Source: Escherichia coli
Lineage (GTDB): Bacteria > Pseudomonadota > Gammaproteobacteria > Enterobacterales > Enterobacteriaceae
Length of the DNA stretch: 64,000 bases
Assembly (NCBI RefSeq): GCF_003334315.1
Contig: NZ_QOWR01000003.1
Direction: 5' to 3' (one strand)
In this document: positions 10,027-12,457 of the stretch, one piece after another
Layout: each line of letters begins with the position of its first letter
Numbering within the stretch: the first letter of the stretch is position 1
Translations under genes and position numbers: made by a program
Notes under the pieces: generated by a model
What the model saw: only the letters and a program-made list of their open reading frames with translations
What the model was told of the DNA's origin: nothing
Databases searched by the model: none

Positions 10027-10529
10027 TGCATAACCTACGAACATTAAGGAGTAATTGAACCACCAACTCAGGATCTCATACGAAAACCAGTATTAACCAC
10101 GGATAAAATTCATAAAAAATACTGATTGTTAGTTAATTTATATTAAGTAGCGCTAATAGATTTAATAATCCATAATCATTTAGAGGCTATTCTTAATTAT
10201 TTGCGGTAATTTTTTATTCATTCCTCGGTTATTACGTCATATTCAGAGCAATCCTGGTATTAGTGTCACCAATTTCATCTGGCGATAATCCTGAAATGTT
10301 ATGAATAGTTCGAGCAAACTGCTTTTACCTGCTGCGGGTTAGTGCTAGTATGAAAAAGTGAGTCCTGTCCCGCTTCCTTCCTAATTGTAATTTTTCGTAA
10401 TAATGCGATGAAAACCTGCAAAGAGTGGCTTATAGTTAAGCTAACAAACGAGAGGGCAAGTCCAGGTCAGTAAGTTTTTTCCATCCCGAAAGGTGTCCGT
10501 TAGTTCAACCGCTAAGAAGGGGACGCGTT

Positions 10530-10904
10530 ATGGATGAATACTCACCCAAAAGACATGATATCGCACAGCTTAAGTTTCTCTGTGAAACCCTGTATCATGA
10601 CTGCCTTGCAAACCTTGAAGAAAGCAATCATGGCTGGGTAAACGACCCAACCTCGGCGATCAACCTCCAGTTGAATGAACTGATTGAGCATATTGCGACC
10701 TTCGCACTTAATTACAAAATTAAGTATAATGAAGACAATAAGCTCATTGAGCAGATCGACGAATATCTGGATGACACCTTTATGTTGTTCAGTAGTTATG
10801 GTATTAATATGCAGGATCTTCAGAAATGGCGGAAGTCAGGTAATCGACTATTCCGTTGTTTTGTCAATGCGACGAAAGAGAATCCTGCGAGTTTATCTTG
10901 TTAG
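10530..10904 (+). CDS. tomB: Hha toxicity modulator TomB (YbaJ)
   Basis: ORF track 10530..10904, 124 aa, [32 protein letters not shown]; immediately upstream of hha. Confidence 0.9.
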
Positions 10905-10929
10905 AATTATTACAACCATGGGTAGAAGT

Positions 10930-11148
10930 ATGTCCGAAAAACCTTTAACGAAAACCGATTATTTAATGCGTTTACGTCGTTGCCAGACAATTGACACGCT
11001 GGAGCGTGTTATCGAGAAAAATAAATACGAATTATCAGATAATGAACTGGCGGTATTTTACTCAGCCGCAGATCACCGCCTCGCCGAATTGACCATGAAT
11101 AAACTGTACGACAAGATCCCTTCCTCAGTATGGAAATTTATTCGCTAA
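10930..11148 (+). CDS. hha: Haemolysin expression modulator Hha (H-NS co-regulator)
   Basis: ATG at 10930 inside ORF-track entry 10684..11148; [72 protein letters not shown], 72 aa. Confidence 0.9.
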
Positions 11149-11225
11149 TAAATAATTCGCTTTCGGAGCTATAACCGGCTGTTTATTAAGAATTTTATAC
11201 TTTTTCGCCATGAAGACATACCCTA

Positions 11226-11241
11226 TGTGATCTTTATCACA
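11226..11241. promoter_or_regulatory. Consensus CRP-type palindrome (TGTGA-N6-TCACA) upstream of maa
   Basis: tgtga-tcttta-tcaca, both half-sites perfect, about 80 bp upstream of the maa ATG. Confidence 0.45.
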
Positions 11242-11319
11242 CAGATGTAATGGGAACGTTCTCTTCACTGACTTTTCGTCTTACTGTGTTGCCGCATTTT
11301 CAGCAACCGGAGGTCAGTA

Positions 11320-11871
11320 ATGAGCACAGAAAAAGAAAAGATGATTGCTGGTGAGTTGTATCGCTCGGCAGATGAGACGTTATCTCGCGATCGCCTGCGC
11401 GCTCGTCAACTTATTCACCGATACAATCATTCCCTGGCGGAAGAGCACACATTACGCCAGCAAATTCTCGCTGATCTATTCGGTCAGGTGACAGAGGCTT
11501 ATATTGAGCCAACGTTTCGCTGTGACTATGGCTATAACATTTTTCTCGGTAATAATTTTTTCGCCAACTTCGATTGCGTGATGCTTGATGTCTGCCCTAT
11601 TCGCATCGGTGATAACTGTATGTTGGCACCAGGCGTTCATATCTACACGGCAACACATCCCATCGACCCTGTAGCACGTAATAGCGGTGCTGAACTGGGG
11701 AAACCCGTCACCATCGGTAATAACGTCTGGATTGGCGGACGCGCGGTCATTAACCCTGGTGTGACCATTGGTGATAACGTCGTGGTAGCCTCAGGTGCAG
11801 TTGTCACAAAAGATGTCCCGGACAACGTTGTCGTGGGCGGTAATCCAGCCAGAATAATTAAAAAATTGTAA
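11320..11871 (+). CDS. maa: Maltose O-acetyltransferase (hexapeptide-repeat acyltransferase)
   Basis: ORF track 11320..11871, 183 aa; left-handed beta-helix hexapeptide repeats ([14 protein letters not shown].., [13 protein letters not shown].., [13 protein letters not shown]). Confidence 0.9.
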
Positions 11872-11986
11872 TCGGTTTTTCGCAACTGTTATGCAAAATT
11901 GTGGTAGATCTGTTACTTCCCCTCTACTATTCCCACGTTAAAATAGGGTGTTCCCTGGAAAGTTGCAGATACCACGAAGGCAAACG

Positions 11987-12457
11987 ATGACCGAAATACA
12001 ACGCCTGCTGACCGAAACGATTGAGTCTCTGAATACCCGCGAAAAACGCGACAACAAACCCCGCTTTAGTATCAGTTTTATTCGTAAACATCCGGGGCTG
12101 TTTATCGGTATGTACGTTGCTTTTTTTGCCACCCTGGCGGTGATGTTGCAGTCCGAAACGCTGTCAGGCTCTGTCTGGCTACTGGTTGTATTATTTATCC
12201 TGCTTAATGGTTTCTTCTTTTTCGATGTCTACCCACGCTACCGCTATGAAGATATCGACGTGCTGGATTTCCGCGTTTGCTATAACGGCGAATGGTACAA
12301 CACGCGCTTTGTACCTGCCGCGCTGGTTGAAGCCATCTTGAACTCTCCGCGTGTCGCGGATGTTCATAAGGAACAACTGCAAAAAATGATCGTCCGTAAA
12401 GGTGAACTGTCTTTTTACGATATTTTTACCCTCGCTCGCGCCGAATCAACATCTTAA
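11987..12457 (+). CDS. ylaC: Inner membrane protein YlaC
   Basis: ATG at 11987 ([25 protein letters not shown]..) inside ORF-track entry 11948..12457; 156 aa with two hydrophobic helices. Confidence 0.8.

Follow-up and report, generated by a model that had tools for sequence, protein, structure and literature searches.

Promoters combining CRP with a LacI-family repressor

The lac P1 promoter is the paradigm of class I activation, with CRP bound at -61.5, a poor -35 element, and a LacI-family repressor that provides the sugar specificity. One of the proteins expressed under this joint control by CRP and LacI, LacA, is a hexapeptide-repeat sugar O-acetyltransferase and a paralogue of Maa. At another set of promoters the repressor CytR sits between two CRP dimers, binding cooperatively. 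The treB promoter is reportedly, according to work of Horlacher and Boos from 1997, under the control of CRP and of the LacI-family repressor TreR. Regarding Maa itself, the structure has been solved and the chemistry is known, and the enzyme is not known to have a clear physiological role or a mutant phenotype.

The maa gene considered here lies in the E. coli locus acrB-tomB-hha-maa-ylaC-pdeB, with gene identities as given by the RefSeq annotation. All positions refer to the window, that is, the whole 64-kb stretch of DNA that was analysed. Its orientation is the reverse complement of MG1655, where the locus is found at ~479–480 kb, and window position x equals 491238 minus the NC_000913.3 coordinate. 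The hha–maa spacer is 171 bp long and contains a CRP box, a palindrome of the LacI-family type, and the core elements of a promoter. These features and their neighbours are arranged as follows:

10530-10904, plus strand: tomB (RefSeq annotation)
10930-11148, plus strand: hha, co-directional and upstream of the box (sequence and RefSeq annotation)
11226-11241, no strand: CRP box TGTGATCTTTATCACA, -68 to -53, centre 11233.5, which is -60.5 from the published start
11242-11251, plus strand: 10-bp linker cagatgtaat, -52 to -43, its sequence varying between genera
11252-11263, no strand: palindrome GGGAACGTTCTC, LacI-family type, -42 to -31, overlapping the -35 region
11259-11264, plus strand: weak -35-like TTCTCT, 3 of 6 positions as in TTGACA, 17 bp upstream of the -10
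11282-11287, plus strand: -10 element TACTGT, -12 to -7, conserved as TTA..T and properly placed before the published start
11294, plus strand: maa transcription start (G), as entered in Table S1 of Kim 2012 with 3 reads
11309-11313, plus strand: Shine-Dalgarno sequence GGAGG of maa, read from the sequence
11320-11871, plus strand: maa, maltose O-acetyltransferase of 183 aa, the gene served by the promoter (RefSeq annotation)

The arrangement resembles that of treB (treBC). In both promoters the order is CRP box, short linker, palindrome, about 20 bp, and -10, and from the CRP centre it takes 46 bp in treB, and 47–48 bp in maa, to reach the first base of the -10. The treB CRP box has one good half-site, TGTGATCTTCGCTGCG, followed by a 4-bp linker, whereas the E. 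coli maa box is perfect and its linker is 10 bp long. As a result of this longer linker, the maa palindrome extends over the -35 and is nearer to the -10 by 6 bp. The palindromes themselves differ by one mismatch in E. coli, when that of maa is compared with GGGAACGTTCCC of treB. The positions of the two genes relative to treR are also different, as treB adjoins treR and maa is located about 4 Mb away on the chromosome. The lac P1 promoter is like that of maa in having CRP about 61 bp upstream of the start, a poor -35, and an acetyltransferase among its products. However, its operator O1 lies downstream of the start (+11), in contrast to the maa palindrome over the -35; its CRP site is imperfect (TGTGAGTTAGCTCACT), unlike the perfect maa box; and lacA is part of the catabolic operon lacZYA, whereas maa is a single gene. 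The CytR/CRP promoters (deoP2, cdd, udp) have a LacI-family repressor adjoining promoter-bound CRP, as is proposed for maa. Unlike there, CRP has a single site at maa and the putative operator is a complete palindrome, an arrangement that points to simple occlusion of the -35.

The CRP box at maa is a published binding site

An original prediction, made from the sequence of the window, pointed to a perfect CRP core in the hha–maa intergenic region, and the exact match is indeed found at 11226-11241, where TGTGATCTTTATCACA agrees with TGTGA-N6-TCACA in 10 of 10 core positions and has twofold symmetry. The box starts 77 bp past the hha stop codon (11148); its end is 78 bp and its centre 86.5 bp upstream of the maa ATG (11320), in line with the predicted distance of about 80 bp. 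Both 6-bp halves, TGTGAT and ATCACA, are optimal, and 15 of the 22 positions agree, as counted by eye, with the extended consensus AAATGTGATCTAGATCACATTT. When both strands of the 64-kb window were searched for TGTGANNNNNNTCACA, a single exact match was obtained, namely TGTGATCTTTATCACA. Dinucleotide-preserving shuffles (n = 100) gave a mean of 0.05 matches per window, with one match in 5 of the 100 shuffles.

Two published studies, one in vitro and the other in living cells, describe binding of CRP to this sequence. Genomic SELEX-chip with cAMP-CRP places maa among the "newly identified targets", and the entry of the supplementary table for the spacer "maa< <hha" gives TGTGATAAAGATCACA, the reverse complement of the box (Shimada 2011; PMC3105977). 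For the same SELEX peak the table also gives another, weak box, AGCGATACAACTCACC, equivalent to GGTGAGTTGTATCGCT at window positions 11350-11365. This second CRP-like box is situated inside the maa coding sequence, at +31 to +46 from the ATG, and its half-sites are poor. In vivo, ChIP-seq in the enterotoxigenic strain ETEC H10407 lists TGTGATCTTTATCACA, assigned to ETEC_0511 (maa), among 111 high-confidence CRP sites (Haycocks 2015; PMC4287617, Table 1). By our own count, 8 of these 111 sites, that of maa included, have a perfect core. The remaining ones, at caiT, ycfQ/bhsA, ygcW, galP, yibI, mtlA, and fdoG, combine a perfect core with in vivo occupancy just as maa does, and as a binding site maa shows no difference from such members of the CRP regulon. 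It is set apart from mtlA or galP in that a published expression study was not found for maa.

Documentation of the site, left unconfirmed in the prediction, is available for both binding in vitro and occupancy in vivo, and the ChIP peak that had been suggested as a check exists at the identical 16-mer. Because occupancy has been published, a combined absence of occupancy and of any expression change can no longer arise. It is virtually certain that TGTGATCTTTATCACA is a real CRP site. Since two genome-wide studies list the exact 16-mer for maa, the box adds nothing new as a CRP site; it is an already known, published one. The predicted core is confirmed, and its reading as a CRP site that puts maa under catabolite control is supported, but the conserved palindrome that adjoins the box had been missed. 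Full-text searches combining maa and CRP returned only PMC3105977 and PMC4287617 as relevant papers, and searches for CRP-dependent expression of maa (in crp or cya mutants) returned none. In the accessible part of Shimada 2011, maa is not named among the promoters fused to lacZ as reporters. It is also absent from the accessible supplements of the ChIP-exo study of Latif 2018, which are uninformative on this point, as they cover sigma-70 promoters and not CRP peaks.

Geometry of the promoter

A transcription start of maa at NC_000913.2 479168 (minus strand, 3 reads), giving a 26-nt 5′ UTR, is entered in Table S1 of Kim 2012 (PMC3415461). Since the upstream sequence of this entry, GATGTAATGGGAACGTTCTCTTCACTGACTTTTCGTCTTACTGTGTTGCCG, equals window 11244-11294, the +1 position is window 11294, or 479944 in NC_000913.3. 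The accessible entries of this table contain no start for K. pneumoniae maa or for E. coli treB. The prediction had proposed that the box should be placed relative to the start; with the box centre at 11233.5 and this published start, the distance is -60.5, a value which fits the class I positions (CRP near -61.5, -71.5, -82.5, or -92.5) and rests on a start mapped with 3 reads. The hexamer TGTAAT (11246-11251) was considered as an alternative -10 and rejected, because CRP would then be at about -24 and the published start supports TACTGT.

A scan of the hha–maa spacer for consensus sigma-70 promoters found none, which fits an activator-dependent promoter. The table of constitutive promoters obtained with RNA polymerase alone (Shimada 2014) has, in its accessible entries, peaks at the ylaC/maa, hha/tomB, and tomB/acrB spacers, and no holoenzyme-only SELEX peak at the maa/hha spacer. 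A second start assigned to maa in the same Kim 2012 table is located at window 11085, inside hha and 235 nt before the ATG, with 7 reads. The terminator scan revealed no terminator-like site on the plus strand after hha. Together with the start inside hha, this means that some maa transcription may be CRP-independent. An RNA element was also considered for the region; no Rfam match was obtained in window 10400-12000 at E-values up to 1.

Conservation in Enterobacteriaceae

Maa-encoding loci were compared with one genome per species, and the matches listed contained 13 other enterobacterial genomes; six further species (E. cloacae, Kluyvera, E. ruysiae, S. enterica, Raoultella, and Klebsiella) were picked via the Maa protein. 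A CRP box with at most one core mismatch is present in 10 of the 13 genomes among the matches listed, 79–102 bp before the maa ATG. When two core mismatches are allowed, the number rises to 12 of the 13, the two additional genomes being Cedecea and Enterobacter sp. Ag1, and Siccibacter is the sole genome of these 13 in which no CRP box was found at maa. In five of the six further species the box has at most one mismatch: it is perfect in E. cloacae, Kluyvera, and E. ruysiae and has one mismatch each in S. enterica and Raoultella. A convincing CRP box was not found in the maa promoter of Klebsiella. The N6 and the flanks of the box differ freely among species and the half-sites are mostly kept. 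The spacer upstream of the box is poorly conserved, in contrast to the conserved distance from the box to the -10 and to the maa ATG.

Twelve maa promoters selected via the protein and sharing the 10-bp linker were aligned in search of conserved islands. Only three stretches reach at least 90% identity, namely GTGA..TCAC, GGGAACGTTC.C, and, at the -10, TTA..T, and T11287 is invariant across an alignment of 14 sequences. The linker is exactly 10 bp long in most promoters that have both boxes, including 6 of 6 among the metagenome maa promoters listed. In S. enterica it is longer by one base (11 bp), whereas it measures 4 bp in Cedecea and in the Enterobacter strains sp. R1 and sp. Ag1. Within E. 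coli, the 86-bp promoter stretch was found in 5425 of 5426 complete genomes. The 38-mer that runs from the box through the linker to the end of the palindrome is unchanged in 4031 E. coli genomes and has one mismatch in 1092; all three variants inspected carry the same T>C within the N6, which is the sole common E. coli polymorphism seen. By comparison of sequences, the maa CRP box is footprinted across species in the textbook manner of a functional site, and the alignment indicates that box, palindrome, and -10 are under purifying selection.

Some observations concern the locus as a whole. Two of the ~5400 E. coli matches to the hha–maa region are on plasmid-labelled records, which may be mis-assigned replicons. 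In NZ_AP025205.2 (3372729-3374506, equivalent to window 10900-11900), the 1001-bp hha–maa query matches as two pieces over 1778 bp and an IS1A transposase is annotated under the match, so that one E. coli strain has an IS1 insertion within the hha–maa region. Outside Enterobacteriaceae, the closest Maa relatives among the best 80 loci are from Bacillota, with 61–72% identity, and not from other Proteobacteria; in the species-representative genomes they belong to Paenibacillus, Bacillus, and relatives. The pattern may be a sign of ancient horizontal transfer of maa.

A palindrome shared with the treR–treB spacer

The sequence GGGAACGTTCTC starts 10 bases downstream of the CRP box and matches GGGAACGTTCCC in 11 of 12 positions. 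The latter is the palindrome present in every treR–treB spacer sampled; in E. coli K-12 this spacer reads TGTGATCTTCGCTGCG tttc GGGAACGTTCCC, with the palindrome 4 bp past the CRP half-site. The comparative evidence, in three independent lines (treB promoters picked by the TreR protein, a metagenome scan, and second palindromes in distant treB promoters), together with what Horlacher and Boos (1997) reportedly found, makes GGGAACGTTCCC the presumed TreR operator. In treB promoters picked by means of the TreR protein it is perfect in 4 of 4 cases (Salmonella, Enterobacter, a Pantoea-labelled contig, and Kosakonia).

A metagenome scan for TGTGA-N(10-30)-GGGAACGTTCCC gave at least 120 loci. Among the matches listed, at least 31 are treR–treB spacers, in which the match is 32 bp long in 30 cases and 33 bp in one, and they include contigs whose TreR is only 44–55% identical to that of E. 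coli. At least six of the listed matches are hha–maa spacers, all with a match length of 38 and all with a perfect CRP box. These two, treB (at least 31) and maa (at least 6), are the only large recurrent classes among the matches listed, each with near-fixed spacing. A third class combining a CRP half-site with the palindrome was sought among the remaining 83 listed matches and rejected, as these are scattered in spacing and GC content. Their downstream ORFs form clusters of only 4, 2, 2, and 2, and chance or unrelated boxes of the LacI type probably account for these matches.

At maa, the perfect GGGAACGTTCCC occurs in 9 of 20 promoters picked by means of the Maa protein, specifically in four Citrobacter, three Enterobacter (a MAG, E. 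cloacae, and sp. R1), Kluyvera, and S. enterica. One mismatch is found in Pluralibacter, E. coli, and E. ruysiae, and two in Cedecea and Enterobacter sp. Ag1. E. albertii has three, as does a divergent Escherichia strain; the palindrome was not found at maa in Escherichia sp. ESNIH1, Siccibacter, Klebsiella, and Raoultella. All 12 palindrome bases are common to E. coli and E. ruysiae, and the flanks have diverged. The mismatch of E. coli, a T in place of C at window 11262, affects one half-site, in contrast to all sampled treB operators, which are perfect. Immediately past the -10, two distant metagenome treB promoters contain a further palindrome that is imperfect, either GGGAACGTTACC or GGGAACGATACC. 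The same two sequences are the palindrome variants found at maa in Pluralibacter and Cedecea. Judging by these second palindromes, some TreR-controlled promoters appear to have two operators.

The palindrome at maa spans -42 to -31, where it overlaps the -35 hexamer and abuts the zone of CRP and the alpha C-terminal domain (alpha-CTD), a position from which RNA polymerase or the activator could be interfered with. A full-text literature search found no published link between TreR and maa, no co-regulation of maa with trehalose genes, and no relevant report of the 12-mer; a report of a TreR-type operator at maa was accordingly not found. A paper on the trehalose PTS contains neither a TreR operator sequence nor a transcriptome. 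The RegPrecise summary of the TreR regulog in Enterobacteriales (PMC4052901, supplement) counts 8 regulators and 8 sites, one per genome, so the maa site is apparently uncounted in that summary. A Genomic SELEX table for FlhDC (PMC9962212) has peaks at both the maa/hha and the treB/treR spacers, and the FlhDC motifs proposed there are located elsewhere.

In the hha–maa spacers of Klebsiella and Raoultella, the place of the TreR-type palindrome is taken by TGAAACCGGTTTC (TGAAACCGGTTTCg/t), just upstream of a -10 of the sequence TATACT. The ascG–ascF spacer of E. coli has the near-identical TGAAACCGGTTTCT. This resemblance suggests that the LacI-family operator at the maa promoter may have been swapped between genera, a lead that was not found published.

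Proposed regulation of maa

Considering the geometry of the box, it is likely that CRP activates maa from a class I site. In the absence of glucose and at high cAMP, CRP would bind at -60.5, and its AR1 would contact the alpha C-terminal domain of RNA polymerase, seated on the 10-bp linker. The polymerase would thereby be recruited to this promoter, in which the -10 (TACTGT) is usable but the -35 (TTCTCT) is poor, and would start transcription at window 11294. We infer these steps from the box geometry and the known class I mechanism. Putative TreR bound to GGGAACGTTCTC (-42 to -31) would occlude the -35 and the alpha-CTD region, and full expression of maa would then need cAMP-CRP together with the TreR inducer, trehalose-6-phosphate. 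Inside the cell, cleavage of trehalose-6-phosphate by TreC yields glucose-6-phosphate along with free glucose, and the latter is, like maltose, a substrate that Maa acetylates. The acetyltransferase would in this way be coupled to the hydrolysis of trehalose-6-phosphate, a source of intracellular free glucose.

The proposal is not equally firm in its parts. Taken generally, maa is probably under both CRP and TreR control. For the genera with a perfect palindrome, the shared operator sequence inclines us moderately towards control of maa by TreR. That TreR still controls maa effectively in E. coli is a tentative suggestion, and somewhat doubtful; given the three mismatches of E. albertii and the divergent strain, Escherichia may have only weak control of this kind or be in the course of losing it. 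As to the complete picture, in which maa would be an unrecognised second TreR target in Enterobacteriaceae, with a class I CRP promoter gated by an operator over the -35, we regard the case for and against it as evenly balanced. The putative TreR gate appears evolutionarily exchangeable, being perfect, changed by one mismatch, decayed (E. albertii), or replaced, depending on the species or genus.

Alternative explanations

The most serious alternative concerns the palindrome. It might serve another LacI-family regulator, or simply belong to the architecture of the -35 and the alpha-CTD region, in which case CRP would be all that maa and treB have in common. The 8 TreR sites in 8 enterobacterial genomes of the RegPrecise summary agree with this, as does the different palindrome of Klebsiella and Raoultella. 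Moreover, LacI-family operators are alike, and a Streptomyces paper that does not deal with TreR contains the identical 12-mer. However, the 12-mer is the one palindrome conserved in treR–treB spacers, even where TreR is very divergent, and an ordinary -35 is not expected to take the form, in 9 genomes, of a flawless 12-bp palindrome centred on CG. The recurrence of the maa variants GGGAACGTTACC and GGGAACGATACC as second palindromes in distant treB promoters also argues against it, and we consider a palindrome without TreR rather unlikely. Another debatable issue is the effect of CRP once it is bound. The site could be occupied and transcriptionally silent, without any regulatory effect, given that CRP-dependent maa expression data were not found in the literature and that many CRP sites lie inside genes and have no known function (34% of targets; PMC4287617). 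This seems improbable, since the box is intergenic, at a canonical class I distance from the mapped start, and its half-sites and their distance to the -10 and the ATG are kept across genera while neighbouring bases diverge; neutral sites would not be footprinted in such a manner.

It could also be argued that CRP bound here acts on another transcript, either read-through from tomB-hha or the product of an antisense promoter directed into hha. The lack of a plus-strand terminator-like site after hha would permit the former, and a TATAAAAT stretch on the minus strand (11199-11192) could be taken as a -10 of the latter. Yet such a -10 would place the box at about -46.5, where CRP is not in a position to activate, the promoter scan has no promoter-like site there, and the Kim 2012 table, searched under the labels maa and hha and under a single coordinate prefix, shows no start nearby. 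In addition, it is towards the downstream -10 and the maa ATG that spacing is conserved, and the upstream spacer is poorly conserved. Action on a different transcript is therefore very improbable. Least credible of all, and hardly conceivable, is a box that arose as a palindrome by chance or serves hha as a terminator hairpin. The terminator scan does report the box as a stem-loop, but only on the minus strand; this match reflects the self-folding of a palindrome, on the wrong strand and with only 3 G-C pairs. No Rfam family matches it, and chance accounts for 0.05 such sites per window. With CRP occupancy published, this explanation is effectively refuted. Activation of maa by CRP from a class I site, with a putative TreR operator over the -35, is thus the interpretation followed below.

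What the maa promoter would mean for trehalose metabolism

As a CRP site, the maa box is a tidy and well-supported example, as its core is perfect, its geometry is that of class I, and its phylogenetic footprint is strong. The wider meaning depends on TreR. If the proposal is true, the TreR regulon, now thought to be a single operon, grows by maa, and the combination of maa with TreR parallels in its design that of LacA in the lac operon. The requirement for cAMP-CRP and trehalose-6-phosphate would then hint at when Maa is needed, that is, when internal free glucose arises from trehalose. It would also mean that a housekeeping detoxification gene has been re-wired to different sugar-specific LacI-family repressors among the genera.
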